Shown here piece by piece: positions 8,287 to 57,114 of a stretch of DNA of 64,000 bases (positions within the stretch are counted from its first letter, which is position 1; each line of letters begins with the position of its first letter). A program made the position numbers and the translations under genes. Location: the NCBI GenBank assembly GCA_045541975.1, contig JAZQKB010000041.1, positions 40-64,039 on the forward strand, written 5' to 3'. This DNA is from Clostridia bacterium (GTDB taxonomy: Bacteria; Bacillota; Clostridia; UMGS1840). The notes below the pieces were generated by a model, which was not told the origin of the DNA, did not search any database, and saw only the letters and a list, made by a program, of their open reading frames with translations.

Positions 8287-8291
8287 AAATT

Positions 8292-8350
8292 CTCCCTTGT
8301 TTTTTAGTGGAGGAAATCCTCCGAAGATGGTTAGCAAGAGCAACATCTTC
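8292..8350 (-). promoter_or_regulatory. preQ1-I-like riboswitch with an extra hairpin in L3
   Basis: Minus strand: P1 GAAGATG/CATCTTC; loop TTGCTCTTGCTAAC ending in the ligand-position C; inserted hairpin GGAGG-ATTT-CCTCC; A-rich ACTAAAAAACAAGGGAG whose CAAGGG can pair with loop CTCTTG and overlaps the SD. Lies upstream of queT. Confidence 0.7.
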
Positions 8351-8359
8351 TTATCAAAA

Positions 8360-8388
8360 AGTATACCATATGGGGAGTTTTTTGTCAA
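8360..8388 (-). promoter_or_regulatory. sigmaA promoter of queT
   Basis: TTGACA-17 bp-TATACT. Confidence 0.85.
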
Positions 8389-8758: not shown

Positions 8759-10354
8759 TTATTCCGAAGGTTTTGGAAAGCGGATGATAACTCGGGTATA
8801 GCTGTTTTTTTCGCTTTCAAAACGGATGGAGCTTTCTTCTCCGAAAAAGAGTTTCATTCGTTTTAAGGAGTTGGAAATGCCAATATGTTTCTGCTCCTGA
8901 GTTCCTTCGTTTAACACGGCAAGACGTTCGGGAGTCATACCGTAACCGTTATCGTAAATTTCCGAGAGAATATAGCCGTTTTCTTCCCGCATGGAAATCT
9001 GAATCAAACAGTCTTTTCTGGCACCGGAAAGTCCATGCACCACGCAGTTTTCCACAAAGGTATGGAAGAACTGGGGTGGAATGGGAAGTGTCATCAGCTG
9101 TGGCTCAATTTTTGTTTCCAGCGGATATTTCTTTTCGTGGGAAAGTTCGTTAATAAACAGATATTTGCGAATAGTTTCCATTTCATCTGCTACAGAAATA
9201 TATTTTCGGTCCTTTTTTAAAATTTCCCGATAATACAGCGCCATATTGTCTACTAGATTCATAATTTTTTGGTTCTGAATCCGATATGCATCCAAACGGA
9301 TGGAGGCAAGAGAATTATAAAGCATATGAGGGTCCAACTGCATAGAAAGTCGTTCCATTTCCAGTTGTCTGTTTTCCAGTTCTGCAGCTTGGATTGCATC
9401 GTGATATGCCTTTAATTCCAGGGAAAGCTTATGCAGGGTTTGTTTAATGGTATTCAATTCCTGTAAATCGTACTCGGTGCGAAAAAATTCACTGTCATAA
9501 AGCAAATCTTCGCCGTCCAGATTTCCCATGAACCGATAAATTTCCCCTAAGGTTTTTCGTGCGGTGTGACGGGTAATCCAGAGAATCAAAGCAATCAACA
9601 CCATCAGCATAATAAAACCTGAAATAATAATTTCCGCACATCGTTGGTATAGCTCACCCTTGGGGATTTTCATCATACAAGAGAGACTGTCGTTTACGGA
9701 CAGTGAGATATAGTTTTCGGAATCCTGCACTCTGGGGTCATTGGAAAACACAATTTCCACGGGGAATCCCAACGACTCGGAATGCAAAATCTGAATCTGA
9801 TAGCGAAGGATACTGTCCGGGTTTCTCGGCAGACGGCGGTACATTATAATGCCTGTCATTTTTTCGCCGGAATACTTCATAGACTTATCAAACACAATAT
9901 CCGTTTTTTTGGACTCAAATGCTTCCATAATTTTGTTGTAATCATGTAAACGGGAAACATGGGAATATAGGTTGGATTCTTGTATGGAGCGGTTGGTTGT
10001 GTAAATCATAGGGGCATTTTGATAAATGGTTGCAGACATCAAAATTTCCTTAGAATAGTCCAGCATTTCCAGCATTTCATCGGTGGAATAGTTTTCCTTT
10101 TTTAACGCATTGCTGATGTAGGAAGACTGCACAATATGCTCCGAGTGAATCATCGCCTGATTCAGGGTTTCCTCTACAGTATCCACATACATTGAAAAGT
10201 CGCTTTTTCGCTCTGAAAGACCGAACTGATAGGCGTTTAGGGTGGCGAAGCAAATAGTGTAGGTCCAAACAAGCAACACAAAAAAACCGATAACGCGGAT
10301 GTTACCGTGTAAAATCTGTTCCAGTAAACTTTTGCGCATCGGTTTTTTCATCAA
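8759..10354 (-). CDS. YesM/LytS-type sensor histidine kinase
   Basis: Two TM helices; QLDPHMLYNSL H-box; FVENCVVHG N-box; DNGYG and HIGISN G-boxes. Confidence 0.92.
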   Translation of the reverse strand: MMKKPMRKSLLEQILHGNIRVIGFFVLLVWTYTICFATLNAYQFGLSERKSDFSMYVDTVEETLNQAMIHSEHIVQSSYISNALKKENYSTDEMLEMLDYSKEILMSATIYQNAPMIYTTNRSIQESNLYSHVSRLHDYNKIMEAFESKKTDIVFDKSMKYSGEKMTGIIMYRRLPRNPDSILRYQIQILHSESLGFPVEIVFSNDPRVQDSENYISLSVNDSLSCMMKIPKGELYQRCAEIIISGFIMLMVLIALILWITRHTARKTLGEIYRFMGNLDGEDLLYDSEFFRTEYDLQELNTIKQTLHKLSLELKAYHDAIQAAELENRQLEMERLSMQLDPHMLYNSLASIRLDAYRIQNQKIMNLVDNMALYYREILKKDRKYISVADEMETIRKYLFINELSHEKKYPLETKIEPQLMTLPIPPQFFHTFVENCVVHGLSGARKDCLIQISMREENGYILSEIYDNGYGMTPERLAVLNEGTQEQKHIGISNSLKRMKLFFGEESSIRFESEKNSYTRVIIRFPKPSE

Positions 10355-10362
10355 TTGTTACC

Positions 10363-11916
10363 TCAATTTTCGGAAGTTTTCTGATTTGCTTGCTGAAACT
10401 CCCTGGGAGTGATTCCGTTATATTTTGCAAAAACGGTTTTAAAGTAATCGTAGTCACTGTAGCCCACCTTATAGGCAATCTGGGTCAGATTCATTTTGCT
10501 GGTGGAAAGCAGTTTTTTAGCTTCCTCCATACGAACGGACAGCAAATAGTCGTAAATGGTGATGCCAAGTTCCCGTTTGAACACATTTCTTAAGTGAGAA
10601 TAGCTCACAAACAGTTGGGAAGCAATCTCTTCAATGGAAGAAATGGTGGAGAAATTGTTGTGAATATAGTTGATGGTCTTCTGAACCAGAGCAAACTGGG
10701 ATTTTCCTTTGTAATTCTTTAAATATTCCCCTGTTAACGTGAGAATATTGCGAAGCCAGATCAAAAAATGTTCCGGATCGGAAAACCGGTTGATTTTATG
10801 GTAGGAAAGGTCTGTTCTTCCCACAATCTGAGCAATGTCAATGTCGTTTTTTAACAGCACTGCCTGAATGGAAGAAATGGTGGAAAGATACAGTTCCTTC
10901 AGCAGGGTTTCGTCATATTCCGGCTCTGAGAAATTGAAGGTTCTGATAAACTGCCCGATTTCTGCGGGAGTAACATCAGCCCGCACCAAATTGGCAACAG
11001 ACTCATTATAGGCAATAAAGTTGAACGAAACATTTTTTACCGAAATATCGGAGTAAGCAATGTAGTCCGAACGAATCAGTTCCAGATTGGTTTTCAGGGC
11101 GGAATCTGCCTGTTTTTCCAAGGATTTCAGCTCAAACAGGTTGCCACCTGTGTCGGAAGCACCTGCTTTCACGGTGACTGCATAGCGGTCAAACAAATCC
11201 TTGATTTTATTGCACATGACACTACGGACGGTATCCTGGAAATTGCTGTTTTTTTCACTCATAAACAGCACTAGTATCGCATCGGTTCCGTGGGGCAGTA
11301 CCACCGGTTCAATTCCCTGAGAGAGTGCCTCCGGAAAGTCTTTTAAATCGCTGTAGGAAGAGAAAATATCTCCTTCTGTTTCCAGAAATTTCGCTTTCAC
11401 CAGAATGAAATGGCGGAAATCCTGCATCAGCAGTGTTGGTGCTGCTTCAAACAGATGAGAGGCATCTGTGGTGTCGGCAGAAAGCAGACGAAACACATAG
11501 TTTTCCCGCCCCAGCTGAAGACTGTTGGCAGATTCAAAATTCTTTTCTGCCCGTTTAATTGCTTTTTTAATGGCATGAATCAGTTCTTCGGGGATAATGG
11601 GCTTCATCAGATATGCCACAACACCGTTATCAATCGCGCGTCTGAAATACTCCACATCATCATAACAGCTAATGTAGATAAATTGAGCGTCAATTCCCAT
11701 GTCACGGATTTTTCCGGTTAATTCCATCCCGTCAATTTCAGGCATGGAAATATCGGTAATCACAACGTCAGGCTTGAACTCTTTGCAGATTTCCAGCGCT
11801 TCGTATCCGCTTTGGGAAATTTTGATACCGCTGATATTAAATTCTTCCGGCTCAATATAACTGAGCAAACTCTGCAGATGCACATAATTGTCATCCACAA
11901 GTAATATTTTATACAT
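10363..11916 (-). CDS. YesN-type response regulator (REC + AraC HTH)
   Basis: ILLVDD...DVVITDISMPEIDG receiver domain; C-terminal IAYKVGYSDYDYFKTVFAKYNGITPREF AraC domain. Confidence 0.93.
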   Translation of the reverse strand: MYKILLVDDNYVHLQSLLSYIEPEEFNISGIKISQSGYEALEICKEFKPDVVITDISMPEIDGMELTGKIRDMGIDAQFIYISCYDDVEYFRRAIDNGVVAYLMKPIIPEELIHAIKKAIKRAEKNFESANSLQLGRENYVFRLLSADTTDASHLFEAAPTLLMQDFRHFILVKAKFLETEGDIFSSYSDLKDFPEALSQGIEPVVLPHGTDAILVLFMSEKNSNFQDTVRSVMCNKIKDLFDRYAVTVKAGASDTGGNLFELKSLEKQADSALKTNLELIRSDYIAYSDISVKNVSFNFIAYNESVANLVRADVTPAEIGQFIRTFNFSEPEYDETLLKELYLSTISSIQAVLLKNDIDIAQIVGRTDLSYHKINRFSDPEHFLIWLRNILTLTGEYLKNYKGKSQFALVQKTINYIHNNFSTISSIEEIASQLFVSYSHLRNVFKRELGITIYDYLLSVRMEEAKKLLSTSKMNLTQIAYKVGYSDYDYFKTVFAKYNGITPREFQQANQKTSEN

Positions 11917-11983
11917 AAGAATACCTCGCTTTGCAACCTTAAAAGTCTCTTTATGGAAGGTCGTAGCGGTTTTTCATCATAAA

Positions 11984-13666
11984 CTAAATCAGATTTTTTA
12001 ATTCCTGATTGATTTTTTCACGGTAGTGAACAATGTAGTCACCAAAGTAGGGGAAGCTATCAAAGGTGATGGTCTGTCCTGCAATTTCTTCGATTAAGTT
12101 AACTACATAGTCTTTTCCTTTGTAGCTTGCCAACAGGTGCATCGCAGTGTAGTCCTGAATCCCGTCTTTAAACACTTTTAAGCGGATACTTTCCACCACT
12201 TCATCACCGTAGGGATACACGCTGAAACCGTCCCCTGCAGGGAAAGCACCTTCGGAATCCACGGTTTCGTAGGGATTAATTAATCCTCTGGACAAAATGG
12301 AGTAGAAGTAGTTGTAACCCCAATGCAAGAAGCCTACACAGTCATACTTAAACATCTGGGTACCCATAATTCTGTTTCTTGCAGAGGGCTGTGCCAAGAA
12401 TCGGTTTGACACATCCTTTGCCTGAGCAGAACAGTAGTAAACCCAACGGTTTTCGATGTCTTCCTGTAAGAATTTGTCCATGCGGTCGCTGGCAGGAACG
12501 GGGGTGTTTACCAGGCCTTTTTTATAAAAATCAATGTCGGAAAGAGCATCCAGCATTTTAAAGCCTTTGGTATAGGGGGCAATCAGCTCCTGTGCATATT
12601 TGTACGAATCAAAATGTCCTAAGCTTAAGAAGGGTTCGTCAGACACATGGAAATACACCTTGTCCTGCACACCTTTCGCTTTTAAGAATGCTACCAGCTC
12701 GGGCATCATTGCATCAATAAACTCTTTGTATTCAGGAGTTTTTGCTTCCACATGCCAGCCAAAGCGTTTTTCTTCTTTGCCGTCTGCAATGACCACAATT
12801 TTGGGGGTATGCACTGCACCCCACTGGGTAAACAGATGGCTCATTTCAAAATACTGTACGCCGTTCTTCAGGCAGATGTCAATCCACTTGTCCAGCTTAT
12901 CAAATTTGAAGGAATATTTGCCGCTGTCGCAGAAACAGTCTACCAACTGAACGGTTTTTCTTTCTCCTAAGTAAGCAGTATCCAGAGGCGGTGTAAACAG
13001 GGGAGTGAGCAGCATGTTGATGCCATTGTCCACTGCCACACGGATGTATTTTTCAATCATTTCCCAATGTTTGTCGGAAAAGATTTCGCAGTTGTGCATA
13101 TCAGCGATACAGTCGCAATGGAACCACTGGGTAAAGATCATTTCCTGCTTGGGAAGTTTCATATCAATTACTTCCAGATTAAATACCGAGGAAGTTTTAT
13201 AATCGTCATCATAATCGGTGCCCTCAAAGGTCACTTCGATGGGGTATACGCCGGGTTTGCAGTCTTCCGGAACCCGCACACTGATCCACACAGCCTGCCA
13301 TTTGTGACAAACAGCGTACAGCGGATGTTCATTGGTAATGGGCATTAACGGGTCAGGATACATTCCTGCGGATAAAGAATAGTAACCGTTATCGCATTTG
13401 GTGGGAAATGCAGCCAGTTCCACCGGCACGTTTCTTACCTTTCTGACGGTAACATAGGGAGCCAGCTCGGAGTTCACGCTAACCTTCAGGTTGCTTCTGC
13501 CGTGCCACCAATCGGTTTTGAAAATCTTAGTGAATGCAATCTGATAGGAGTATTCTTCTCCTTTTAACGCAGAACCGCCACGGATGGTTTCATGAACGGG
13601 TTCTTTGTCAAACAGCACCTTTTCCAGGGAAGATACCTGTTTTAATTTCAGCTCGTAAATAGCCAT
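11984..13666 (-). CDS. DUF4091-domain glycoside hydrolase, GH123-like (putative beta-N-acetylgalactosaminidase), no signal peptide
   Basis: HVSDEP catalytic-type DE pair, WVYYC, GFLHWGYNY, PAGDGFSVYP, SIRLKVFKDGIQDY. Start at ATG 13666 after AAGGA. Confidence 0.75.
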   Translation of the reverse strand: MAIYELKLKQVSSLEKVLFDKEPVHETIRGGSALKGEEYSYQIAFTKIFKTDWWHGRSNLKVSVNSELAPYVTVRKVRNVPVELAAFPTKCDNGYYSLSAGMYPDPLMPITNEHPLYAVCHKWQAVWISVRVPEDCKPGVYPIEVTFEGTDYDDDYKTSSVFNLEVIDMKLPKQEMIFTQWFHCDCIADMHNCEIFSDKHWEMIEKYIRVAVDNGINMLLTPLFTPPLDTAYLGERKTVQLVDCFCDSGKYSFKFDKLDKWIDICLKNGVQYFEMSHLFTQWGAVHTPKIVVIADGKEEKRFGWHVEAKTPEYKEFIDAMMPELVAFLKAKGVQDKVYFHVSDEPFLSLGHFDSYKYAQELIAPYTKGFKMLDALSDIDFYKKGLVNTPVPASDRMDKFLQEDIENRWVYYCSAQAKDVSNRFLAQPSARNRIMGTQMFKYDCVGFLHWGYNYFYSILSRGLINPYETVDSEGAFPAGDGFSVYPYGDEVVESIRLKVFKDGIQDYTAMHLLASYKGKDYVVNLIEEIAGQTITFDSFPYFGDYIVHYREKINQELKNLI

Positions 13667-13742
13667 AACTCTCAGTCCTTTCGGCATTGATCCTATAAAA
13701 ATAATTGACGGTCTGATAATCAGACAACAATACTTCAATGAT

Positions 13743-13771
13743 AGTATAATTTATCTTTTGTTTTTTGTAAA
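13743..13771 (-). promoter_or_regulatory. sigmaA-type promoter of the GH123-like/two-component arm
   Basis: TTTACA-17 bp-TATACT. Confidence 0.65.
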
Positions 13772-13920
13772 CCTAAAATGTGTTTTTTTGAACCCCCTAA
13801 AATCTGCTTTTCTGAAGGCCGGAAAATTACAAGGTCCAAATTTAGAAAAAAACAGCATAAAAAAGCTTCCATTATTTTACAAAAAATAGTGATTTGAGGT
13901 TTTTTACCCCTAAAATCTGC
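13772..13920. repeat. Direct repeats CCTAAAAT / CCCCTAAAATCTGC, candidate regulator-binding sites
   Basis: Exact 14-mer at 13794-13807 and 13907-13920; 8-mer core also at 13772-13779, abutting the leftward -35. Confidence 0.55.
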
Positions 13921-13983
13921 CAAAAACTGTGATTATTATTGAAAAAAAGCACATTTTAGTATATAAAAAAAGCAGATTATGGG

Positions 13984-14012
13984 TTCACAAAAACAGTTTT
14001 TTTTTGTATAAT
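13984..14012 (+). promoter_or_regulatory. sigmaA-type promoter of the ABC/surface-protein operon
   Basis: TTCACA-17 bp-TATAAT. Confidence 0.65.
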
Positions 14013-14265
14013 ATAGACAAAATAATATAGTTTGGTTCGACCAAAAACTACAATTTCTGAACGAACCGTATTCTGGGTGGCGCTTCCAGTGGGGAGGTGC
14101 TGCCGGCGAGGACAACGTCAACTTCTATAAAAAGGGTGGACTTTGTCCGTTTTGTCGTCTGATAAAACGTTATCGGAAACGGTTTTTCATGAGTTGAGGT
14201 TCCGGAAAAACCGACGTGTTCCAAAAAAACGCAAAAACATTAAAGTAAGGTGGAATGAGAGAAAC

Positions 14266-15291
14266 ATGAAAAAAGTAATGGAACAGACAAATGAACAAGT
14301 TCTGGAATCAGTTGCCACCCCCGAAGTTGAAACGGGTGTTGCTGAAATGGAATTTGTTGCACCGCCGAAAAAGAAGAAAGGCTTCTTTTTCAACATTCGC
14401 AAATTCAGCGGTGCGTACTTAATGATTTTGCCGGCAATTGTGCTGACAATCATCTTTTCCTACCTGCCTATGTACGGTATCGTGATGGCATTTAAAAACT
14501 TCCATCCGGTAGAAGGTATTTTGGGAAGCCCCTGGGCAGCAAACTATGGATTTGAGCATTTCATTGCGATTTTCCAAGAGCCCGATTTGGTGAAAGCTGT
14601 ATCAAACACCGTTGTATACGGTCTGGTTATTTTATTCGGAGGTTATCCCTTCCCGATTATCCTGGCTCTGATGTTCAACGAAATCAGAAGCAAATGGTTT
14701 AAGAAAGTTTCCCAGACCATTGCATACTTTCCCCACTTCTTATCCTGGATTTCCGTTATCGGTCTGCTGTATACCTTCTTAGCAAAAGAAGGACCCTTCA
14801 ACCAGCTGATGGGATCTTTGGTAAATGGTTGGGTTCCCGTAAACCCCTTAATGAAGCATGAATACTTCTTAACCATTATGTTTGTTTCCCACTTATGGAA
14901 AAACGTTGGTTACTCTTCCGTTGTATTCTTAGCAGCGATTACCGGTATTGACCCCGGCCTTTACGAGGCTGCAAGTATTGACGGTTGCGGCAAGTGGAAA
15001 CAGGTTTGGCATATCACCCTGCCCAGCATCAAGCCTACCATGGTAATTATCCTGGTTATGTCTTTGGGCGGCCTGATCAACGTAAACTTTGAACAGGTAT
15101 ATGGTATGCAGAATGCATTTACCCAGCCGTACACTGAAGTAATCGGTACTGTTGTATACCGTCGTGGTATTATGGGCGGTGACTATTCTTCATCCACTGC
15201 ATTCGGTTTATTCCAGGGTCTGGTTAGCTTATTCCTGGTAGTGTCTGCAAACTGGATTTCTAAGAAAGTCACCGAACAGAGTATTTGGTAA
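14266..15291 (+). CDS. Carbohydrate ABC transporter permease (LplB/YteP type)
   Basis: YLPMYGIVMAFKNF, PHFLSWI, LYEAASIDG EAA loop. Start uncertain (14143-14278). Confidence 0.92.
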   Translation: MKKVMEQTNEQVLESVATPEVETGVAEMEFVAPPKKKKGFFFNIRKFSGAYLMILPAIVLTIIFSYLPMYGIVMAFKNFHPVEGILGSPWAANYGFEHFIAIFQEPDLVKAVSNTVVYGLVILFGGYPFPIILALMFNEIRSKWFKKVSQTIAYFPHFLSWISVIGLLYTFLAKEGPFNQLMGSLVNGWVPVNPLMKHEYFLTIMFVSHLWKNVGYSSVVFLAAITGIDPGLYEAASIDGCGKWKQVWHITLPSIKPTMVIILVMSLGGLINVNFEQVYGMQNAFTQPYTEVIGTVVYRRGIMGGDYSSSTAFGLFQGLVSLFLVVSANWISKKVTEQSIW

Positions 15292-15309
15292 GAAAGGAGA
15301 TTGATTGAC

Positions 15310-16197
15310 ATGAAGAGAAGTTTAGGAGAAAAAAGCTTTGGCGTTGTAAACATGATTCTCATGATACTCATCTGCATCATCTCTGTTTACCCGTATTTAA
15401 ACCAGGTAGCGGTTTCGTTAAACGACGGTAGAGACGTTATGGCAGGCGGTATCACCATTTTCCCCAGAAAATTCACCTGGGAAAACTACACCACTGTACT
15501 TTCCAACCCCTCATTCCTGCAGGCTGCAAAAGTTTCTGTTACAAGAGTTATTTGCTCCACTGTGTTATCCCTGTTGGTAACCTATTCTGCAGCATACGGC
15601 TTAACCAGAAGAGGTTTACCTTATAGAAAATTCTTAACTTTATTCCTGATGTTACCCGGCTATATTCCGGTTGGTACCATTCCTACATACATCAACATCA
15701 GTAACTTAGGTTTACTGGATAACTTCTGGGTATATATCATTCCCGGACTGTTCGGTTTCTACAATATGATTATTATCCGTTCCTATCTGCAAGAGCTTCC
15801 GCCTGAAATGGAAGAAAGTGCGAAGATTGACGGTGCAAACGACTTAATCATTATGTTCCGCATCATTTTCCCCATGACACTGCCGGTAGTTGCCTGCGTA
15901 GCACTGTGGGTATCCGTTGGTGCATGGAACGACTGGACCTCCACTTTGATTTATGTTACTGACCCCGACCTGCACACTCTGCAGTACTTAATGATGCGTC
16001 TGGTAAAAGAAGCAGAAACTGCAAACCAGATGTCTATGCAGGCTGCTATGAGTAAAGGTCAAACGGTTCCCCGTGTTACCGGTGATACTGTAAAAGCAGC
16101 AACCTTAATTATCACCACATTACCGATTCTGATGGTATATCCCTTCTTGCAGAAATACTTCATCAAAGGTATCAATATTGGTGCAGTAAAAGGTTAA
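15310..16197 (+). CDS. Carbohydrate ABC transporter permease (LplC/YtcP type)
   Basis: EMEESAKIDGAND EAA loop, WNDW, YPFLQKYFIKGINIGAVKG end. Confidence 0.93.
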   Translation: MKRSLGEKSFGVVNMILMILICIISVYPYLNQVAVSLNDGRDVMAGGITIFPRKFTWENYTTVLSNPSFLQAAKVSVTRVICSTVLSLLVTYSAAYGLTRRGLPYRKFLTLFLMLPGYIPVGTIPTYINISNLGLLDNFWVYIIPGLFGFYNMIIIRSYLQELPPEMEESAKIDGANDLIIMFRIIFPMTLPVVACVALWVSVGAWNDWTSTLIYVTDPDLHTLQYLMMRLVKEAETANQMSMQAAMSKGQTVPRVTGDTVKAATLIITTLPILMVYPFLQKYFIKGINIGAVKG

Positions 16198-16293
16198 TTC
16201 TGAAAATCCCCTATACTATTATATATTATATAGGGAAAAACTTCCCCATTTATTTTGTAAAAATAAAATACATATAAAAAGGAGAAAAACATT

Positions 16294-18222: not shown

Positions 18223-18278
18223 ATCCTAAATCATACTAAAATTTCTAACCACACAACAGAAAATATGAGGAAGAATTT

Positions 18279-22202: not shown

Positions 22203-22228
22203 TTTATAGTTCCAATTATTTTAGGGCT

Positions 22229-22309
22229 ATCGTAAGAATGAAAATCTCTCCTGTCTTCGGGGTTTCGGAGGCAGGAGAGTCTCACAGCAAGTTTATACAC
22301 CCTTACGAT
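22229..22309 (+). other. Nested intergenic stem-loop without U-tract
   Basis: Outer ATCGTAAG/CTTACGAT (22229-36/22302-09); inner CTCTCCTGTCTTCG/CGGAGGCAGGAGAG (22246-59/22266-79). Confidence 0.7.
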
Positions 22310-22379
22310 GTTTCCGATCTCATTTTTTATTAAAAAAAAAACAAAATAATAAAAAAATTAAGAAAGGACATCAAGTAAT

Positions 22380-25811: not shown

Positions 25812-25834
25812 AAAATGTTTTAAACAAAAGGACT

Positions 25835-25931
25835 TTGGCAGGAGCGATATGCTCCTGCCAACCCTGATGTTTTCTCGTAACTCTATTGAGGAAACATTCT
25901 GCAGGCGAATGGGTTTGCAGAATGCTTCCTC
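25835..25931 (+). other. Two intergenic stem-loops without U-tracts
   Basis: TTGGCAGGAGC/GCTCCTGCCAA (11 bp perfect); GAGGAA-A-CATTCTGCA/TGCAGAATG-C-TTCCTC. Confidence 0.7.
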
Positions 25932-25985
25932 TGTAGAATTGCGGCATCTTAGTTAAAAAAATCTCAAAGAGAGGTAATTAAAAAA

Positions 25986-30560: not shown

Positions 30561-30638
30561 TACAGAATCCGGCTGGACCTGCTAATCTTTTGTCCGGCTT
30601 ACAAATACAAACAGAAATGTTTGAAGGAGGATTTTCCA

Positions 30639-33600: not shown

Positions 33601-35258
33601 AAGATCCCAACAACCGTCCCATTTTATCCGGCGGTGAACCCTTAACCGGTAAATGGAGTAAGGTTTCCGGCGAAGAATATTGGGTAGCTACTACCTCCAC
33701 CCGTGAAACCAGAGCATTATATGTCAACGGCTATCAGGCAACTATGGCAAGAAGCAGTGGCTGGTATATTGCAGACGACGTTATTGCTCCGGAAACTCCG
33801 GTAAATGATGTGCATATTGCAGACGGTTTTAAGGTAAATATTGAACAGTGGGATACTGATTTCCCCAGAAACTTAGATGATGATACCAGATTACAGGTAG
33901 TATTCCAGAAAAACTGGGCAAACCATCGTTTCCCTGTGGAAAAAGTAGTTTATACTACTTATTTAGGTTATGAATACGCATATGTATACATTCCGTTCCC
34001 CAGATATCACATCTTCTTAAACGATGATGCCACTACCTCTACCATTCAGCCTACCGGTTCCTTCTACTTAGAAAACTCTATGGACTTCTTGGATGAACCC
34101 GGTGAATTCTTCTTTGACAAGGCAAACCGTAAGATGTACTACTATCCCTATGCAGAAGAAGATATGACCACTGCAGAAACCTTCTGTGCAGTTACCGACG
34201 GATTAATGACCATTACCGGTGTTGGTGCTACCAACAAGGTTACCAACATGGAATTTGACGGTTTATCCTTCCGTTACGGTGCTTGGGATGAAGCTTCCAC
34301 CAACGGTGCAGCCTTCAACCAGGCAGACGAAATGCGTTTGGGTGGCGAAATCTGGTACGGAAGCTATATGTTCCCCGCACAGGTTACCTTAAACTATGCA
34401 GATAACGTAGTATTTAAAAACTGTGAATTTGCAAACTTAGGCTCCAGTGCAGTTCTCTTTGAAGAAGGGGATACCAACTGCCGTGTAACCGGAAGCTCCT
34501 TCCATGATATTTCCGGTACCGGTGTTGTAGTCGGAAACTTCCTCCACGATGTGAATATGTCTTCCGATAAACAGCGTTCTACCCATATTGAAGTAGACAA
34601 CAACATCTTCCGCCGTTGTGCACAGGAATACTTAGGGACCACCGCAGTTGCGGTATACTATACCGGTGATTCCAAAGTTCATCACAACGATATCGCTGAT
34701 ATGCCTTATACCGGTATTACCCTTGGTTGGGGTTGGGGCGCAGCATTACCTGACGATTGCGGAAACAACGTTGTGTCCTACAACAAGATTGAAGATGTAA
34801 TGCAGACTATGTATGACGGGTCTCAGATTTACACCGTAGGTCTGCAGGGATACAACCAGATTAACGATAACTACTTTATCGATCCGGGCGATCACTTAAG
34901 AGGCGGTCTGTATCTTGACCAGGCAACTCAGGATCTGTACTTCAGCGATAACGTATTTACCGATGCAAAACCCACCACTGACCGTTGGTTATTCGCAAGA
35001 AGATATGTAGATATTGAAAATTGCTACGGTTCTTATAACCATACTGACGGTAAAATGCCTTCCACCGGCGGTTCCTACGGTTTTGACAACTCCGGCGTAA
35101 CCATGGAAAACAATAACGTAAGCGTGACCAGCTGGTCTTTATCTGCACAGAGAATTATGTCCGAAGCAGGTGTTGACAATCAGACCGAGCTTCAGACTGT
35201 AGACTACTATCCGTCCTGGAGAACCATGCGTATGTTAGACGTTCCCGCAGACGAATAA
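30639..35258 (+). CDS. Secreted multimodular GH141-like enzyme, paralog of 25986-30560 (3x module A, PT linkers, CBM, helical + beta module, beta-helix)
   Basis: TTG start at 30639 after AAGGAGG; signal peptide; [40 protein letters not shown]. Confidence 0.8.
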   Translation: MRNEIKKLLSICLLVAMICSMMAFPVSAAPTWTGKFSDLSGYTNGYVGENYAMSTFTKSGADGSSVSGTDYYATASNPFGASGAFTMVTGNWGRYELTVPYTGVYAFQLRTDWFGGSGTGYRVTTEHGYYAEYSISDTGWSSGGLQDQPLYLKEGTNIITIECIGPGNAILGAWDLGRLDAQGADSSLDFLPLVKLTSDLPEATATPEPTETPTPTEAPLTWPGAYSDLDENYKNGYAGEVYTMTTFTKSGADGSSVSGTDYVATSGSPFGSTGMFTMLVNDWGRYEITAPYTGVYALQLRTSWIAGDGTTSYQVITEHGYYADYTITNTGWSSGIYQDQPIYLEEGTNIVTIVCTGPNAAILEAYDMGLLNKGGAEASLDYLGFVKIGTPAVPTPTPTAEPTAEPTATPTPTVAPTATPTTAPTATPTATPTATPTATPTQVTTWIGNVKLEPAFNGYSGEVAATSFSGDYYAQSNHISGDNFTMANGEWGTYTFNAPYTGVYGVQLYVESIAGDTTVRMISGDYYADFELTTTGWTNQDGVQIDQPMYFIEGANTFTLKNIGSNSVILSSMDYGYLNATGYDSMSYIGFVKPVSSMPAEPVVTPTPTATPNYTDSEYMIITEAEAYTTQSGTTQGTHGNATVITATNESTSTYTVTVPDTGVYNLYLRGAAWKDVSVDITVDGTYQSYETMHFNLHKDDTYPLQTEKIYSMHLTAGTHTLTFTYFCDVFYFDDFRLENTSSRTYHLLYGFKDATTSQEAYNILVECGSLLGIDVEADTANIFYPQMSFWPMVSKDYDSLDAMLAAYNDIITSESSSPTVKLYNVSNTPVSTLPTGTARLIINTSNMPANSTVVVAEYQGSKMVGNLNTLTSTSTTVTCTLTGLTAQSQVKIMVFSEIEEAKPYSSSGVYKDIYVATTGKSTNDGLTPETPVATVAQALTKVKAYNSTMTGDIVVHIAPGTYRSNVTIAIDQTMSGMNGYKVILKAEDPNNRPILSGGEPLTGKWSKVSGEEYWVATTSTRETRALYVNGYQATMARSSGWYIADDVIAPETPVNDVHIADGFKVNIEQWDTDFPRNLDDDTRLQVVFQKNWANHRFPVEKVVYTTYLGYEYAYVYIPFPRYHIFLNDDATTSTIQPTGSFYLENSMDFLDEPGEFFFDKANRKMYYYPYAEEDMTTAETFCAVTDGLMTITGVGATNKVTNMEFDGLSFRYGAWDEASTNGAAFNQADEMRLGGEIWYGSYMFPAQVTLNYADNVVFKNCEFANLGSSAVLFEEGDTNCRVTGSSFHDISGTGVVVGNFLHDVNMSSDKQRSTHIEVDNNIFRRCAQEYLGTTAVAVYYTGDSKVHHNDIADMPYTGITLGWGWGAALPDDCGNNVVSYNKIEDVMQTMYDGSQIYTVGLQGYNQINDNYFIDPGDHLRGGLYLDQATQDLYFSDNVFTDAKPTTDRWLFARRYVDIENCYGSYNHTDGKMPSTGGSYGFDNSGVTMENNNVSVTSWSLSAQRIMSEAGVDNQTELQTVDYYPSWRTMRMLDVPADE
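31816..31965 (+). repeat. Pro/Thr-rich low-complexity linker ([24 protein letters not shown]...)
   Basis: Degenerate 12- and 24-bp repeats within the CDS. Confidence 0.8.
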
Positions 35259-35273
35259 TCTAAAATTAAAAAA

Positions 35274-35308
35274 TCCGGAATATGCCTGTTTTTCAGGCAT
35301 ATTCCGGA
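35274..35308. other. Perfect 15-bp stem-loop TCCGGAATATGCCTG-TTTTT-CAGGCATATTCCGGA
   Basis: No U-tract in the sense direction; a T-run follows only on the minus strand. Confidence 0.75.
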
Positions 35309-35368
35309 ACCAAATAATAAAACCCCGCATGACTACGATGTTTTTGCAACTTAAGGAGGGTTCAGACA

Positions 35369-35650
35369 GCGATACAAGTCCGCATAAAAAATTTAGTTTC
35401 ATTTCTTTTGATTTTCACCATGATGGCAAGCATGCTGACGGTCATGATGCTGCAGACAGCTTCTGTTCCTGTTTGTTGTAACCCCAATATGAACAGGGGG
35501 ACCAACTACAGTAAATTAATCAACCGGCCTGCTATCGCACAGATATGTAAGGGAGAAGCAGACGTCACCGATCAATTCCGATTCGACGAGATTAATAGTT
35601 ATCCCTCTTGGAGAATCACACGAATGCTGGATATTCCGGCAAAAGAATAA
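35369..35650 (+). pseudogene. Mini-ORF or remnant: signal-peptide-like N-terminus joined to the C-terminal tail of the GH141-like paralogs
   Basis: RBS AAGGAGG at 35353-59; open frame RIKNLVSFLLIFTMMASML...; ends AQICKGEADVTDQFRFDEINSYPSWRITRMLDIPAKE, collinear with [37 protein letters not shown]. No canonical start codon at the RBS distance. Confidence 0.6.
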
Positions 35651-35815
35651 GTGCTAATTGAGAAAAATTTCAAAATCAGATCAGAACTTCTCATTGTTGA
35701 TTTTTAATACTGTTTTTCAGACAGAATCAAATGTCTTCTGTCCGAAGAACCCCAAATTTGCTAATAAAAATTTTATATATATCAAATTACATGCAAAAAT
35801 TAAGGAGGATTGCTT

Positions 35816-38800
35816 ATGAACCGTAATTTGAAACGAGTGCTCTCTGTAGCACTTATGGCTGTCATGCTGGCAGTGAATTTTGTAATTCCTGCAATGGCAG
35901 CAACAACCGTTACCGTATCCTATACGGACTTATTAACTTATGGCTCCTTGACCGGCAGACAAGGTGAGCTATACTATGAGACCAATGCCAGTTCAGTTGA
36001 ATCTGCTAGCACTAAAAACGGTGCGTATAATCCGTTAGAAGTGTGGTCCAACGTAAACAATGCCGGCTTGAACATAAAAGCCAGTGAATGGGTAAGATTT
36101 GAAGTAACTGCTGAAACTGCAGGCTACTATTCTGTCGGCATGAATGCTGCTGTTGGTGCAACCAACGGTACTGATGTTTACATTCGTACCGAAAGCAGTA
36201 TCACAGAAAAAGATCTTGCAAGAACCGGTACTCAGTATCAGTATACTGATATCACTGATTTAGGATATGTATACTTAGAAGAAGGTTCCAACTACATTTA
36301 TGTAGATAACAAAGGCGGTTCTTATATCAACTTCAGAAGCTTAACTCTGACTTTGGATGAAACTGCTGATGCTACCGATGTAGCATGGTTGGCTCCCATT
36401 GCAAGTGCAAATGAAATTGCTGGCTTGACCGTAGTGTATAATGACGGTTACAATCAGGCAGATGTAAGCGAAGCAACCCTGACCTTCCCCGTAGATATTC
36501 CGTTAGACGGTAAATATCAAGTATCCGTAATGGGGAAAGCCGGTGGTTCTAACACTGTAGCTACTGATTTTGGCGGCGATGCAAAAGAAGCAACCGTTTC
36601 TAACAGTGCATATGGCTACACCGCATTAGGTGTATTCCCCTTAACAGCAGATGAATATACTCTGACTTTAGACGGTTTCACCAACTATAGCTTAGCTTGG
36701 GTAAAAGTGGAATACGTAGGTACTTACAACACGGAAATCGTTAGTGAAACCATTTCCGATGGTGCCACCGTTTCCAGAGGTACCGATAGCTATGTGATTG
36801 AATTGAACGATAACATTGTCTCTGTGGATGCAGCTACTCAGATTACTTTAGCCTCTGCAGAAGACACGATTGAAACCGTTGCAACGGTTGAAGGCAAAGA
36901 ACTGACCGTTTCTTTCAAAGAAACTCTGGACTATGAAACTCCCTACACTTTAACCGTAACCGGCTTAAAAGGTGTATACGATGAAGAAGCGATGGCAGAT
37001 CATGTGGTAACTTTCACCACTGCTGACGAAACCAATACTGACGGTACCGCAACCGTGGAAGTAACTGATGTTACCACTTCCCGTGAAAACGGTACTGTAA
37101 CCGGTATCGTAAAAGGTTCCACCGGCGTTGGAATCAAAGGCAGAGCAGTTACCGTTTATGACAGTTATATGGGCGAAGTTGCAACCGGAGTATCCGGCGA
37201 TGGCGGTGTATTTGAAATTGACTTCACCATTACCGAAACTGTCGCAGGTGTACATACTTACACTGTAGATTCCGAGTACGGCGCAACTGCTTCTGCAATT
37301 GTAAGCTATGTATCCGAAGCAGAAGAATTAGGAATTCTTAGCTTATTTGCAAGTGCAACCACTCCCGAAGCTGTATATAGCATTTTTGAAAACTACGGCG
37401 AAGTTCTGATGGTTCCCACTTACGCAGAAGATTGTGACGCTTTAGCTAACGATGCTCTGTTTTTAGCTCACTTTATGGGCAAAACATTCACTGCAGTTTC
37501 TGAAGTGGCTCCCTTCTACAAGAAAATGCTGACATTAGAAGGTATGAACCAAGCAACCGTTGGTTCCAGAGTGGATGATTATCTGACTGCAGAAATCTGT
37601 GAATTAATCGGCATTGCATCTGATAAATTGGATTTAGTTATTATCAATGACCCCAGCAACAGCAATAAGATTTCTTTTGCAGCAGACATTGCAAGAGATA
37701 CCAACACCAACGGTGCAAGCACCTCTGAAGAAGATTTCAAAGGAAGAATTGCAAGATTACTGGATGCTTGGTTATTAGTGAAATACCAGATTGAGCCCAC
37801 CACTTTAGTTTTACCCACAGAAACCATTTCTTGCAGATATGCAAGTGAAATTGCAATTCCGATCAAGTTTGCAACTGCACAGACCAAAGTAAAAACCATT
37901 GTTGTGACAGTAACTACCGCTCAGGCAGCATTACTCGAAAATGCAAAAGCAGTTGTGGCAGGATTAGCACCTGTTAATGCTGTTATTTCCGGTAATACTG
38001 CAACCTTCACTCTCGACTTTGAAGAAAATGCTGAAAAAGAATATACCGAAGTTGGTAAAATTTCTTTGCAGGCATCCATAATTGATACCCACTCTATCGA
38101 TGTGGCAGCAACTGTTTCCTATCGTTTGACTTCGGATGATAACTATGCGGATATGGACCGTCCTGTAACCGGTGATACCGTTAGTGCAACTGTAACTTCT
38201 TCTATTACTGAAACCCCAAGACCCGTTACCGGTGGCGGTGGATACACCGCTCCTCCGAAGGAGCCTGAAAAAGAAGAGGAAGATACTCAGAAATCCAAAT
38301 ACTTCTTCGACGATATGGCTGACGCTCTCTGGGCTCAGGATATGGTTCATGCTTTAGTTGGAAAAGGTGTTATTTCCAAAAATGATGAAAGAGCATTCCG
38401 TCCCATGGACAATGTAACCCGTGAAGAATTTGTTAAAATGTTGGTAACTGTAGTAGGTACCCACAATGCAAATGCAACCTCCAGCTTAACTGATGTTGGT
38501 GCAAACCATTGGGCAACTTCCTACATTGCAACCGCTCAGGAACTTGGTATTGTTCAGGGCAATGCAGACGGCACTTTCGGCTTAGGTCAGAAAATTACCC
38601 GTCAGGATATGGCAGTTATGGTTTACAGAACCTTTGCTCTCTTAGGGATTGACCTTTCCGCAGGTTCCACCGCATTTGCAGATGGCGGCGATATTGCCGA
38701 CTATGCAAAAAATGCTGTTAGCGCACTGGAAAAACAGGGTATTATCAACGGTATGGGTGATGGCACCTTTGCTCCTGTTTCCAACGCTACCAGAGCACAA

Positions 38801-38845
38801 TCCGCTAAAATTATCTATGCTATGATGGAGGTGTTAGGCGTATGA
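35816..38845 (+). CDS. SLH-anchored scaffold-like surface protein (2x CBM-like, Ig-like domains, 2x helical module, cohesin-like beta-sandwich, 3x SLH)
   Basis: Signal peptide; GYYSVG..GYVYLEEGSN; LTVSFKETLDYETPYTLTVTGLK (Big_5/SbsA-like); GGGGY linker; FDDMADALWA..FRPMDNVTREEF, FGLGQKITRQDMA, FAPVSNATRAQSA SLH repeats. Confidence 0.75.
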   Translation: MNRNLKRVLSVALMAVMLAVNFVIPAMAATTVTVSYTDLLTYGSLTGRQGELYYETNASSVESASTKNGAYNPLEVWSNVNNAGLNIKASEWVRFEVTAETAGYYSVGMNAAVGATNGTDVYIRTESSITEKDLARTGTQYQYTDITDLGYVYLEEGSNYIYVDNKGGSYINFRSLTLTLDETADATDVAWLAPIASANEIAGLTVVYNDGYNQADVSEATLTFPVDIPLDGKYQVSVMGKAGGSNTVATDFGGDAKEATVSNSAYGYTALGVFPLTADEYTLTLDGFTNYSLAWVKVEYVGTYNTEIVSETISDGATVSRGTDSYVIELNDNIVSVDAATQITLASAEDTIETVATVEGKELTVSFKETLDYETPYTLTVTGLKGVYDEEAMADHVVTFTTADETNTDGTATVEVTDVTTSRENGTVTGIVKGSTGVGIKGRAVTVYDSYMGEVATGVSGDGGVFEIDFTITETVAGVHTYTVDSEYGATASAIVSYVSEAEELGILSLFASATTPEAVYSIFENYGEVLMVPTYAEDCDALANDALFLAHFMGKTFTAVSEVAPFYKKMLTLEGMNQATVGSRVDDYLTAEICELIGIASDKLDLVIINDPSNSNKISFAADIARDTNTNGASTSEEDFKGRIARLLDAWLLVKYQIEPTTLVLPTETISCRYASEIAIPIKFATAQTKVKTIVVTVTTAQAALLENAKAVVAGLAPVNAVISGNTATFTLDFEENAEKEYTEVGKISLQASIIDTHSIDVAATVSYRLTSDDNYADMDRPVTGDTVSATVTSSITETPRPVTGGGGYTAPPKEPEKEEEDTQKSKYFFDDMADALWAQDMVHALVGKGVISKNDERAFRPMDNVTREEFVKMLVTVVGTHNANATSSLTDVGANHWATSYIATAQELGIVQGNADGTFGLGQKITRQDMAVMVYRTFALLGIDLSAGSTAFADGGDIADYAKNAVSALEKQGIINGMGDGTFAPVSNATRAQSAKIIYAMMEVLGV

Positions 38846-41685
38846 TGAAAAGAAGCTTATCTCTGTTACTCGTTCTGATTCTGGCTTTAACTTCTTTTAG
38901 TCTGGTTGCTTCTGCAGCATCCGGTGCAAGCCAGGTGATTTCCCAGTTCAACATTATGCCCCAGAGCTGCTCTGCAGACTCCGAAAATTTAGTTACCCGT
39001 AGAGACTTTGCTTACACCATTGCCAATATTTTAGGCAGTGGTGAAGCAGCACCCCGTGCAACTGACTTTATTGATATTGGCGAAGATATTGAAGATTCCG
39101 GTTACATCTACTATGCAACTGTAAACGGTTTCTTAGCAACTACCGGCAATATGTTCTGCCCCGATGATCCAATCTCTTTGCATGATTTTAACGATGCAGT
39201 AATTAAACTGCTGGCTTATGAAACCATTGCAGAAGCAAACGGCGGCGGAAAAGACGGTGCGTTAAAAACCGTTAGAGATTTAAAAATTTACAATGGTGTT
39301 ACCATTAAAGATTATGAAACCGTAACCGTAAAACAGTACCGTCAGTTGGTATATAACTTGATGACTGCAGATATCACTGATTTCAGCTATAGCTATGATC
39401 AGGACGGCAACATCAATCTTTACAGAACCGGTACTACCAAAACCCTTTTATCTCAGTATTTTGGTATTTCTCGTTACTATGGTTCCATTACCGAAGTTAA
39501 TAATCAGAAACCCAGCGCAAAATTCAGAGTAACCAAAAACGTTTCTGAAGCAAATCCTGAAATGCTGGTTGTTGGTTCTGACTACTATTTCTTATCCAAT
39601 GGTACTGTAGACTTAAACTTCTATCAGAACATTCCGATTGAAATCTGGACCAATAAAGACGGTGTGATTGTTTATATTGCTCCCCAGCCCAATGTAGAAG
39701 TGTTCTACGATGTGATCTACAGCGTAAACAACGATACCAACCCCAATAATGCATATGCTTTGAATCTGGTTGATGAAATTGAATTCAACCGTGATACCAG
39801 AGAATATAAAATTGACAGTTCTGCAACAGTAAGTTATAACGGTGCTATTACCGGTATTCCCGTGAAACTGGCTGGCAAATATGCGAAAATTGTTTTAATT
39901 AACAACAAAGTAACCTTCATTGAAACCTGGAACCTCCAGGAAGGTGGTATGGTTTTAGAAATTAACAACAGCTACATTTCTTACATCAAAGGAGAAGCTG
40001 AAGATAAACTGAAGAGAATCGGTGAATACGACGATATCATGGTTATTATCGAAGGCAGAAGCACCGACCGTAACCAGATTAAACCCGGTAGTTTATTCTC
40101 CTATTATCAGACCGATAATCTTCTGGTAATCGTAGTTTCCGAAAAAACTCTTGTTGGTAACTTTGACAGTATGTCCACAGGTGAAATCGAAATCGGCAGA
40201 CATTTCTATCCCACCAGCGGTAATATTTATGTTTCCGAAGACGGCGAAAACTATCATGAAAATGATTTTGACAGCGTATTCGATACTCAGGTAACCTGCT
40301 ATGTGGATATTTTCGGTAACATTCGTTACATGAAATCCAACGGTTACTTAAACGAAGCAAACGTGTTTACCGCTTATATCCTCGGTTCTTCTCAGAAGGG
40401 CTTTGAAGATATCAAAATTAAAGTTCAGAAAATTTATCCCACTCTTGAAGAAGTGATTATTACCAAGCCTTCTGATTTGGCAGATTCTAAATATGTTGCA
40501 TATGACGATACTACTGCAAGCAGCTTGCGTGATACTTTCAGAAGTGCACAAAGCATACAACAAGCAGCATTGACTACGAGACAACAAGATATTGAAAGAG
40601 CGGCTGACTTTCTTTACAAGTTTACAGTGGATGAGGATGGCGTGATTACTCAGATTTCTGAACCTGATTTCTTTCTCCTATTTGGGGAGGAACACTACAT
40701 TCCGTTTACTCCCGAAGCTACCGATGCAGTACCTGCTCCTACTCCTACCAATGTACCCATTCCTCGTACACCAGTAAAAGATGCAATGTTAGACCATTTC
40801 TGCGGGGATGAACGTGCAATTTACTTCCCCTATACCACAGATAGCGAGAGCGGATATATCAACGGTTATAACCGAAATGCGACTGACGTAGCTTCCAATT
40901 GGACCTATTTCTGGATTCGTGACGAAAAATTTGTAGTATTAACCACGATTGACGGAGAATTAGGTGTTGTACAAAGATCTCATGGCGATATGGTTGGTCT
41001 TGGTACTTATACGTTGAGTCAGGGAAGTTCAGATGGTATCGTAAGAATTGCGATGTTGGCAGAACCCGGTGCATCTCAGCCCCAGTGCTGGTTCCTTTAC
41101 GGTGCAACTGATAAAATGCGTGGCGATACTTCTAGAGGAAAGACTGCCATGATCGACTCTGTAACTCAAAGATACGATTTGGAAGAAGATCGTAAGTACT
41201 ACGAAGTTGTTTTAGACAACGGTGATATGGTATGGAAGTTAGATACCGATGCTATTGACCATGAAACTTGGGATGTAGTGCATCAGAGAGGCGAAAATGA
41301 AGATCCTCCTGAAAAATTGGAAGCCGGCATGAGAGTTACCTATACTGGAAGAGCAGAATTTACGAGAAACGGAAGTTATATTACCGGCGTGGAAGAGTTC
41401 ATGCAGAGTACATCCGGTTCTGATCTGACTATGGATGACTGGCTTGCAACTCAGGGCAGTGGCCTTCTTCAGGGTACTGTTAAGAAAGTAACTGGTCAGA
41501 GACTGTACTTGGATAATGGTGCAGCTTATCATATCAGTGACAAGGGCGATCTGATTGGTCTGAAATTTAAAAATGGTAAAGTAGAAGAAGTAGACATTAG
41601 TACAACAGATATTTCTGCAGGTTCTACTGTTTACTACGGATCAACCTTTGGTGTTGGCAATATCTACGTGGAAGTTACTGACTAA
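38842..41685 (+). CDS. S-layer-type protein with N-terminal degenerate SLH repeats and beta-rich repeats
   Basis: Signal peptide; VTRRDFAY..TDFID..SGYIYYAT.NGFL..FCPDDPI..AVIKLLAY SLH-like region; start overlaps the previous stop (ATGA). Confidence 0.7.
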   Translation: MMKRSLSLLLVLILALTSFSLVASAASGASQVISQFNIMPQSCSADSENLVTRRDFAYTIANILGSGEAAPRATDFIDIGEDIEDSGYIYYATVNGFLATTGNMFCPDDPISLHDFNDAVIKLLAYETIAEANGGGKDGALKTVRDLKIYNGVTIKDYETVTVKQYRQLVYNLMTADITDFSYSYDQDGNINLYRTGTTKTLLSQYFGISRYYGSITEVNNQKPSAKFRVTKNVSEANPEMLVVGSDYYFLSNGTVDLNFYQNIPIEIWTNKDGVIVYIAPQPNVEVFYDVIYSVNNDTNPNNAYALNLVDEIEFNRDTREYKIDSSATVSYNGAITGIPVKLAGKYAKIVLINNKVTFIETWNLQEGGMVLEINNSYISYIKGEAEDKLKRIGEYDDIMVIIEGRSTDRNQIKPGSLFSYYQTDNLLVIVVSEKTLVGNFDSMSTGEIEIGRHFYPTSGNIYVSEDGENYHENDFDSVFDTQVTCYVDIFGNIRYMKSNGYLNEANVFTAYILGSSQKGFEDIKIKVQKIYPTLEEVIITKPSDLADSKYVAYDDTTASSLRDTFRSAQSIQQAALTTRQQDIERAADFLYKFTVDEDGVITQISEPDFFLLFGEEHYIPFTPEATDAVPAPTPTNVPIPRTPVKDAMLDHFCGDERAIYFPYTTDSESGYINGYNRNATDVASNWTYFWIRDEKFVVLTTIDGELGVVQRSHGDMVGLGTYTLSQGSSDGIVRIAMLAEPGASQPQCWFLYGATDKMRGDTSRGKTAMIDSVTQRYDLEEDRKYYEVVLDNGDMVWKLDTDAIDHETWDVVHQRGENEDPPEKLEAGMRVTYTGRAEFTRNGSYITGVEEFMQSTSGSDLTMDDWLATQGSGLLQGTVKKVTGQRLYLDNGAAYHISDKGDLIGLKFKNGKVEEVDISTTDISAGSTVYYGSTFGVGNIYVEVTD

Positions 41686-41698: not shown

Positions 41699-41733
41699 AA
41701 AAAACAGAGAGAAGCAATTCTCTCTGTTTTTTT
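41699..41733. terminator. Bidirectional rho-independent terminator closing the PUL operon
   Basis: AAAACAGAGAGAA-GCAA-TTCTCTCTGTTTT with A- and T-runs on both sides. Confidence 0.9.
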
Positions 41734-56772: not shown

Positions 56773-56792
56773 AAGAAATATTTCCGATTGGC

Positions 56793-56821: not shown

Positions 56822-56837
56822 ATGAAGGATTCAATCG

Positions 56838-57113: not shown

Positions 57114-57114
57114 T

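Follow-up and report, generated by a model that had tools for sequence, protein, structure and literature searches.

Positions 8759-41685 of the analysed window, a stretch of 64,000 nucleotides from the Clostridia bacterium contig JAZQKB010000041.1, are one bounded 33-kb glycan-utilisation locus between housekeeping genes, in which a predicted beta-N-acetylgalactosaminidase (GalNAcase) is paired with three GH141 enzymes (Table 1). The genes that an earlier sequence-only reading had described there were all found at its coordinates by a listing of open reading frames (ORFs), 12 in the locus, and by Pfam/NCBIfam scans, so that its account of the gene content holds. Genes for QueT (7810-8388), DUF436, and VanZ lie on the left and genes for an NMN transporter (41863-42621) and a nitroreductase on the right, and these housekeeping flanks bound the locus as described. 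Because degrading enzymes, a sugar transporter, and a regulator are co-located, the region is a Gram-positive polysaccharide-utilisation locus (PUL), here of an uncultured ruminant-hindgut Clostridia genus, and it presents a new enzyme pairing in a known kind of locus. In Gram-positive PULs, the regulator, the importer, and the glycan-degrading enzymes are joined in one locus and an MsmX-type shared ATPase is encoded elsewhere. The locus resembles them in its co-located regulator, ABC importer, and enzymes and in having its ATPase elsewhere, whereas it differs in an enzyme set of GH123 type and GH141 only, in the number of its carbohydrate-binding modules (CBMs), and in its SLH wall proteins. 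The regulatory pair is a two-component system of the YesM/YesN type, with a His_kinase (PF06580) sensor and a REC-AraC regulator in the Pfam scan. A search of 8000-42800 against Rfam matched no family, and a look for RNA runs covering 12000-21999 found none.

Table 1. Features of the locus, in positions of the whole window
Feature	Position	Strand	Basis
Sensor histidine kinase, YesM-like, with two membrane segments flanking an outside domain of ~200 aa	8759-10354	-	His_kinase 3e-14, HATPase_c 8e-06; segments read in the translation
Response regulator, REC and AraC-type DNA-binding domain	10363-11916	-	Response_reg 1e-22, HTH_18 9e-22
Predicted cytoplasmic exo-beta-N-acetylgalactosaminidase, GH123/DUF4091 Group 4	11984-13666 (listed ORF to 13738)	-	GH123_cat 6e-105; 8k2l 2e-154
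Putative operator array, five CCTAAAATSTGY-like copies (three direct, two inverted)	13772-13983	.	Divergent promoter
Sigma-70-like promoter of the importer/enzyme arm	13984-14012	+	TTCACA-17-TATAAT, 11/12; consensus match only
ABC permease 1, CUT1 type, UgpA-like	14143-15291	+	BPD_transp_1 6e-15
ABC permease 2, GlcU/UgpE/MalG-like	15301-16197	+	BPD_transp_1 6e-15
Lipoprotein substrate-binding protein, 642 aa, divergent	16294-18222	+	Lipobox LAAC; no Pfam match
GH141 enzyme a: signal peptide, two CBM6-like modules, catalytic domain, CBM35-like module, SLH anchor	18279-22202	+	Pfam
Secreted non-catalytic protein: six CBM6/35-clan modules and a C-terminal helical/beta module	22380-25811	+	Own profile
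GH141 enzyme b: four CBM6/35-clan modules, helical/beta module, catalytic domain, no anchor	25986-30560	+	Pfam, own profile
GH141 enzyme c: paralog of b (58% identity), identical layout	30621-35258	+	Pfam
Apparent relic of a lost GH141 paralog	35384-35650	+	tblastn with enzyme c residues 1509-1545
SLH-anchored wall protein, CBM-like modules and Big_5 domain	35810-38845	+	SLH 3e-28, Big_5; Sap SLH 4e-12
SLH-anchored all-beta wall protein	38842-41685	+	Start overlaps the preceding stop; structure model and ESM neighbours
Two-way terminator hairpin closing the locus	41699-41732	.	15-pair stem, T runs on both strands

The product of 11984-13666 carries a GH123_cat domain at residues 205-536 (6.2e-105, Pfam), as expected of the GH123-type enzyme that had been proposed, and further comparison places it more precisely. 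Sumida et al. (2024) split DUF4091 proteins into classic GH123 and Groups 1-4, Group 4 comprising strict monosaccharide-releasing beta-GalNAcases in which a DE motif is catalytic (PMC11087588). The best PDB match of the window enzyme, 8k2l/8k2m, is nearly full length (2e-154, 518 bits, residues 30-582) and is followed by 8k2n (6e-95, 322 bits), all of them named monosaccharide-releasing beta-N-acetylgalactosaminidase. Lower scores were obtained with the Niabella enzymes (177 bits), Group 3 (123), Group 2 (47), classic GH123 (43 and 29), and Group 1 (19). This order, from Group 4 through Groups 3 and 2 and classic GH123 down to Group 1, assigns the enzyme to Group 4. We read 8k2l/8k2m as NgaP2 of Paenibacillus sp. 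TS12 from its two-entry status, since only NgaAt, NgaDssm, and NgaP2 gave ligand complexes according to that paper. The catalytic DE motif is kept (HVSDEP aligned with HVSDEP of 8k2l), as are the equivalents of NgaP2 W196, D244, W298, and F489, that is, four of five substrate-contact residues in a hand count on the printed alignment, in which D297 is not placeable. The listed ORF starts at a TTG codon, and alignments to relatives and structures begin no earlier than residues 11-30. The start codon is most likely Met25 (13666), which opens MAIYELKLKQ... with neither a hydrophobic leader nor a signal peptide, and the enzyme would then be cytoplasmic. The protein is thus predicted to be an NgaP2-like strict exo-beta-GalNAcase, its family and motif being directly visible and its activity deduced from them. 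Sumida et al. also state that natural substrates are not established for several of these enzymes and that few beta-GalNAc oligosaccharides are sold commercially. The window enzyme is like NgaP2 and Group 4 in its near full-length match, kept motif and contact residues, and lack of a signal peptide; it differs in coming from an uncultured Clostridia lineage and in being embedded with secreted GH141 enzymes, and its activity is a predicted one.

BT1002, an alpha-L-fucosidase of rhamnogalacturonan II (RG-II), and the endo-xylanase Xyn141E are GH141 members that both act on plant glycans. The premise of the sequence-only reading that these two are the only characterised members is outdated, as the endo-1,4-alpha-L-fucanases Wf141_1/2/4 now belong to the family (Rubtsov et al. 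2025, PMC12786026). The three GH141 genes it had recognised are borne out. Enzymes a, b, and c each match GH141_M (4.8e-11, 6.2e-09, and 9.4e-08 in the three) together with Beta_helix in Pfam, and BT1002 (PDB 5mqp) aligns across the whole catalytic domain (5e-46, 8.5e-37, and 1.3e-36). Rubtsov et al. report that D523 and D564 are essential in BT1002. In enzyme a, D844 and D880 are aligned with two aspartates of 5mqp_A that lie 41 apart and whose equivalence to D523 and D564 depends on an inferred offset between chain and native numbering of 5mqp_A. The motifs DG(A/S)xIYT and YxD(E/Q) recur in b and c, so both catalytic aspartates are kept in all three enzymes. Enzymes b and c share 58% identity, and a is 35-38% identical to them, which makes at least two GH141 specificities likely. 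The nearest full-coverage GH141 catalytic domains outside the lineage are 41-43% identical and belong to unnamed proteins; the GH141 search returned 2655 matches at E<=1e-10 among the candidates scored. The window enzymes share with BT1002, Xyn141E, and Wf141_1/2/4 the beta-helix with an insertion domain and both essential aspartates. They differ in matching BT1002 only distantly (5e-46 to 1e-36) and in being giant, multi-CBM, Gram-positive forms that occur as 3-5 tandem paralogs and are paired with a GalNAcase. To our knowledge, no close relative of them has been characterised. PDB matches of b and c to the circumsporozoite protein and to AaBglC fall on Pro/Thr linkers and were taken as low-complexity.

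The 551-bp gap at 35259-35809 holds a further trace of the family. A signal-peptide-like start is fused there to a GH141 C-terminal tail of ~37 residues with 49% identity to enzyme c residues 1509-1545 (tblastn), and in one genus member two additional GH141 genes occupy this position. The relic resembles what an internal deletion would leave behind after removing a fourth GH141 paralog.

Around the catalytic domains, a hidden Markov model (HMM) built iteratively from one repeat finds a single family of ~140-aa modules. It hits enzyme a three times, exactly on the Pfam CBM_6 and CBM_35 stretches, the protein at 22380-25811 six times, b and c four times each, and the protein at 35810-38845 once or twice, giving 18-19 CBM6/35-clan modules in the locus. 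The six-CBM protein has no Pfam or PDB match and no enzyme domain. A stretch of helices followed by a beta module also recurs, by eye and at approximate coordinates, at ~25300-25811, 28200-28700, 32900-33400, and 37300-38200. It ends the six-CBM protein, precedes the catalytic domain in both b and c, and lies within the protein at 35810-38845; a separate 34% match falls in a CBM-like stretch and not in this module. The last gene (38842-41685) gave no Pfam, NCBIfam, or PDB sequence match, and no hidden enzyme was found in it. Its AlphaFold2 (AF2) model from 12 orthologs has a mean predicted local distance difference test score (pLDDT) of 70.8; the N-terminal SLH triad fits SpaA-SLH (target template-modelling (TM) score 0.63-0.71), all-beta domains without a meaningful match follow, and the ESM neighbours are SLH proteins. 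Structure matches of this model to DDB1 and bS1 (TM 0.06-0.09) were discarded as meaningless. No enzyme beyond the GalNAcase and the three GH141 proteins was found in the locus.

The importer consists of two permeases and a lipoprotein. Permease 1 probably starts a little downstream of 14143, to judge from relatives that align from residue 17-39. The ESM-Atlas neighbours of the lipoprotein are SBP_bac_8/1 clusters, and the top Foldseek matches of its AF2 model (pLDDT 61.4) are all oligosaccharide-binding proteins, namely 5gx8, which binds a glycosaminoglycan disaccharide, AlgQ2, FusA, and CbpB (E 7e-12 to 1e-10, target TM 0.40-0.52). Over its full length, it also shares 24% identity with a 619-aa lipoprotein encoded next to a second permease pair, on contig C26. 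None of the 12 ORFs of the locus has an ABC ATPase domain (ABC_tran) in the Pfam/NCBIfam scans. The source genome (1.69 Mb, 42 contigs, 97.9% complete) has three CUT1 permease pairs and a single OB_MalK match, on contig C17 (NF008653, 483.6 bits against a cut-off of 432), in a gene flanked by an rRNA methyltransferase and other non-transport neighbours and hence an orphan of UgpC/MalK type. One orphan ATPase for three permease pairs supports the earlier suggestion that the locus lacks its own ATPase and draws on a shared one of MsmX type, the coupling itself being a prediction.

Genes that could handle released GalNAc are present elsewhere in the genome. A NahK homolog (4e-101 against 4ocu) is clustered with NagB and NagA, and GalE is also encoded; with GalT, these would make up a NahK/GalT/GalE/NagA/NagB route able to take GalNAc, the flux through it being our prediction. 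At C21:2267-6538 (L027), the NahK homolog, a 443-aa protein, NagB, and NagA stand in one row, and the 443-aa protein has only faint ROK/sugar-kinase likeness (PDB 3r8e, 7e-04); the row may be an N-acetylhexosamine salvage operon with one unassigned step. The genome has eight GH141_M matches, two of them in the second importer locus (C26:45481-69939; L021, L022). There, the paralogous 619-aa binding protein and the two GH141 genes are accompanied by rhamnosidase-, GH3-, GH29-, GH63-, and GH130/32-like genes and by genes for a PfkB kinase, a class II aldolase, and an FAD oxidoreductase; this is probably a separate system for another complex glycan.

Both arms of the locus diverge from one intergenic region, and the motif CCTAAAATSTGY is concentrated in it. 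With at most one mismatch, the motif has four matches in the window, all within 13772-13960, against a chance expectation of 1.72 for the whole window, and no such copy lies elsewhere in the window outside the divergent promoter. Together with a fifth, weaker copy, they form a pair of direct sites spaced 24 bp, a middle site, and an inverted pair spaced 23 bp. All five sites recur in this arrangement at the same intergenic region in six of eight related loci, L013 and L016 having only 3 sites. Allowing two mismatches, the related loci have 3-6 sites within ~500-600 bp, of 5-14 in ~21 kb. We read the array as a candidate operator that the locus regulator would bind to serve both arms. Its confinement to the shared promoter and its conservation in relatives argue that the arms are co-regulated, in line with the single divergent unit claimed before. 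Separate control of downstream genes is neither supported nor contradicted by the lack of motif copies outside the promoter.

In the species-representative collection, the close relatives are metagenome-assembled genomes of Clostridia bacterium, sampled from buffalo colon, from the cecum and rectum of water deer, from roe deer rectum, and from comparable material. In all eight full-length related loci, synteny covers the kinase, the regulator, the GalNAcase, the two permeases, the binding protein, and enzyme a, and QueT and DUF436 follow in six of the eight, placing the locus at a shared chromosomal site. The start of the six-CBM gene is present in five of the eight among the matches listed. 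Among 10 genus members, nine have the GalNAcase and nine a full-length or nearly full-length last gene, and in five members both are on one contig, 28-37 kb apart; in G004 (94% complete), neither the GalNAcase nor a full-length last gene was found, and there is one GH141 match only. Such synteny shows that the locus is not a chance grouping. The number of GH141 copies in the locus varies, with four in G001, G003, G006, and G009, five in G007, and three in the window. GH141 genes have expanded in the window's family, being present in 14 of the 15 genomes compared (1-11 matches each) and in none of nine sister-family genomes or the one genome of another family (relatives G000-G025). When loci of other species (L010-L017) were compared with positions 8759-22202, identity was 86-96% for the GalNAcase, compared with 47-86% for the kinase, 68-93% for the binding protein, and 65-93% for enzyme a. 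In L012, the binding protein (68%), enzyme a (68%), and kinase (64%) are set off against the GalNAcase (87%), the regulator (91%), and the flanks (82-83%). Faster divergence of the extracellular parts than of the GalNAcase would be in keeping with a microbial surface polymer of variable structure.

Among the loci compared, the pairing of the two enzyme families was seen only in this lineage. Eight loci of other genera of the same order have GalNAcase homologs (41-58% identity) and no neighbour resembling the window importer or the GH141 enzymes, and a Pfam scan of 41 of 56 ORFs in seven of these eight loci found no GH141. A GH141 HMM of our own, which recovered eight of eight controls, found no GH141 in 80 metagenome loci collected by GalNAcase alignment (39-50% identity), including 37 loci of at least 12 kb. 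Its absence from 80 of 80 loci with such a GalNAcase upholds the view that the combination is unusual. We found no description of a GH123-GH141 locus in the literature; the accessible part of one preprint mentions GH141 and GH123 in different gene neighbourhoods (bioRxiv 10.1101/2022.06.28.497753). In a locus of another family in the same order (L035, G024:C40:1-20000), the GalNAcase homolog is accompanied by an AraC regulator, by two secreted proteins of ~1150-1200 aa that resemble heparinase II/III, and by SLH proteins, a content that hints at a polymer of uronic acid and GalNAc there.

The explanation we favour, and hold to be likely as a whole, is that the locus is a Gram-positive PUL for fragments ending in beta-GalNAc, with a microbial or protist surface polymer as the favoured source. 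At the cell surface, the three GH141 hydrolases, with 3-4 CBM6/35-type modules each and one of them SLH-anchored, would cut the polymer, an activity predicted from their domains. The six-CBM protein and the two SLH wall proteins would work beside them in binding the polymer and cutting it into oligosaccharides. The lipoprotein and the two permeases would import these, powered by the single orphan UgpC/MalK-type ATPase. In the cytoplasm, the GalNAcase, the sole cytoplasmic enzyme of the locus, would remove beta-GalNAc from non-reducing ends, and the sugar would enter metabolism through NahK, GalT, GalE, NagA, and NagB. The kinase and the AraC-type regulator would switch on both divergent arms through the repeated operator. 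That the substrate fragments should end in beta-GalNAc follows from the only cytoplasmic enzyme being an exo-beta-GalNAcase. The many CBMs, three endo-capable enzymes with one exo enzyme, and the turnover of GH141 paralogs argue for a polymer over a small host glycan, and we think that a microbial or protist surface polymer (capsule, exopolysaccharide, or wall polysaccharide) is likelier than host mucin or plant fibre.

Several observations weigh against this explanation. The model of the binding protein has low confidence (pLDDT 61). AgaS, which would mark the AgaS-type GalNAc pathway, was not found in the genome, and the type-2 GalT scores 596 bits, below the curated cut-off of 650. Hairpins after 22380-25811 and after 30621-35258 leave co-transcription of the last four genes with the importer unsettled. 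We know of no characterised GH141 enzyme that acts on a GalNAc-bearing glycan, the known ones being the RG-II alpha-L-fucosidase, the xylanase, and the fucanases. Two further points bear on host glycans in particular. The genome holds one GH20, one BNR/sialidase-like (BNR_2), and one GH2 gene. When 78 neighbours in 18 of the 23 metagenome loci with full flanks were scanned (five were set aside for size and because some seemed to be duplicates), Group-4 enzymes were found beside GH35 (two loci), GH27 (two), GH109 (one), ABC binding proteins or permeases (four), and AraC regulators, and GH35, GH27, and GH109 in such places fit host-type Gal/GalNAc oligosaccharides.

These two points feed the strongest alternative, in which the substrates are host glycans ending in beta-GalNAc, such as Sda, LacdiNAc on colonic mucins, or glycolipid heads, and the GH141 enzymes serve as mucin fucosidases or endo-enzymes. 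The ruminant hindgut is a suitable habitat for it, and BT1002 is an alpha-L-fucosidase. Characterised GH123 and Group 4 enzymes cleave host-type GalNAc-beta-1,3/4-Gal ends (PMC11087588). However, no gene of the locus codes for a sialidase, fucosidase, galactosidase, or sulfatase, the 18-19 modules belong to the CBM6/35 type and are not mucin-type binding modules, and of the usual mucin exo-enzymes the 1.69-Mb genome encodes just one copy each. The genome's single Sulfatase-family match is a 628-aa protein, which we presume may be a lipoteichoic acid synthase. We regard the host-glycan explanation as unlikely.

Appreciably less probable is an ordinary plant-fibre locus for xylan, pectin/RG-II, or a related hemicellulose, with the GH123-like enzyme in a side role or with another specificity. 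Plants are the diet of the host animal, hemicellulases commonly carry CBM6/35 modules, plant glycans are the substrates of the two GH141 enzymes known longest, and the second GH141 locus on C26 has rhamnosidase-, GH3-, and GH29-like genes. Yet the sole cytoplasmic enzyme matches a strict beta-GalNAcase near full length (2e-154) with the DE motif and four of five contact residues, the best GH141 matches outside the lineage do not exceed 43% identity and are unnamed, and the Pfam/NCBIfam scans of the locus show no xylosidase, arabinofuranosidase, esterase, or uronate-pathway gene. About as improbable is remodelling or recycling of the bacterium's own GalNAc-containing wall polymer or biofilm matrix instead of foraging, for which three proteins SLH-anchored to the cell's own wall, the NahK-type salvage genes, and the fixed core position of the locus can be cited, whereas the dedicated oligosaccharide importer, two-component switch, and ~18 CBMs are the usual make-up of a foraging locus and G004, where the GalNAcase and the full-length last gene were not found, speaks against an essential wall function.

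Within the favoured explanation of a foraging locus for a microbial or protist surface polymer, one specific and long-shot proposal is that the GH141 enzymes are endo-acting on a GalNAc-rich wall polymer of another gut microbe. With the cytoplasmic exo-beta-GalNAcase as the one enzyme downstream, a polymer consisting mostly of beta-GalNAc would fit. Candidate substrates are the methanogen wall polymers pseudomurein and methanochondroitin, which contain GalNAc, and the Giardia-type cyst wall, a beta-1,3-GalNAc homopolymer according to PMC2924369. If true, this proposal would add a new activity to GH141 and reveal the first pathway by which bacteria feed on such walls.

Apart from the locus, the window includes a low-GC block at 56000-64000 (33-38% compared with ~43%). 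It encodes DUF6119, DUF6680, and an HTH-containing C-5 cytosine methylase and is probably a defence island or a mobile one.

Very few members of the large GH141 family have been characterised, and the natural substrates of Group-4 enzymes are likewise little established. The locus joins both families in a small, conserved, and regulated unit with one downstream enzyme, which makes it a clean test bed. The inducing glycan, once found, would give a substrate to both families and show what this widespread lineage eats in the ruminant hindgut.

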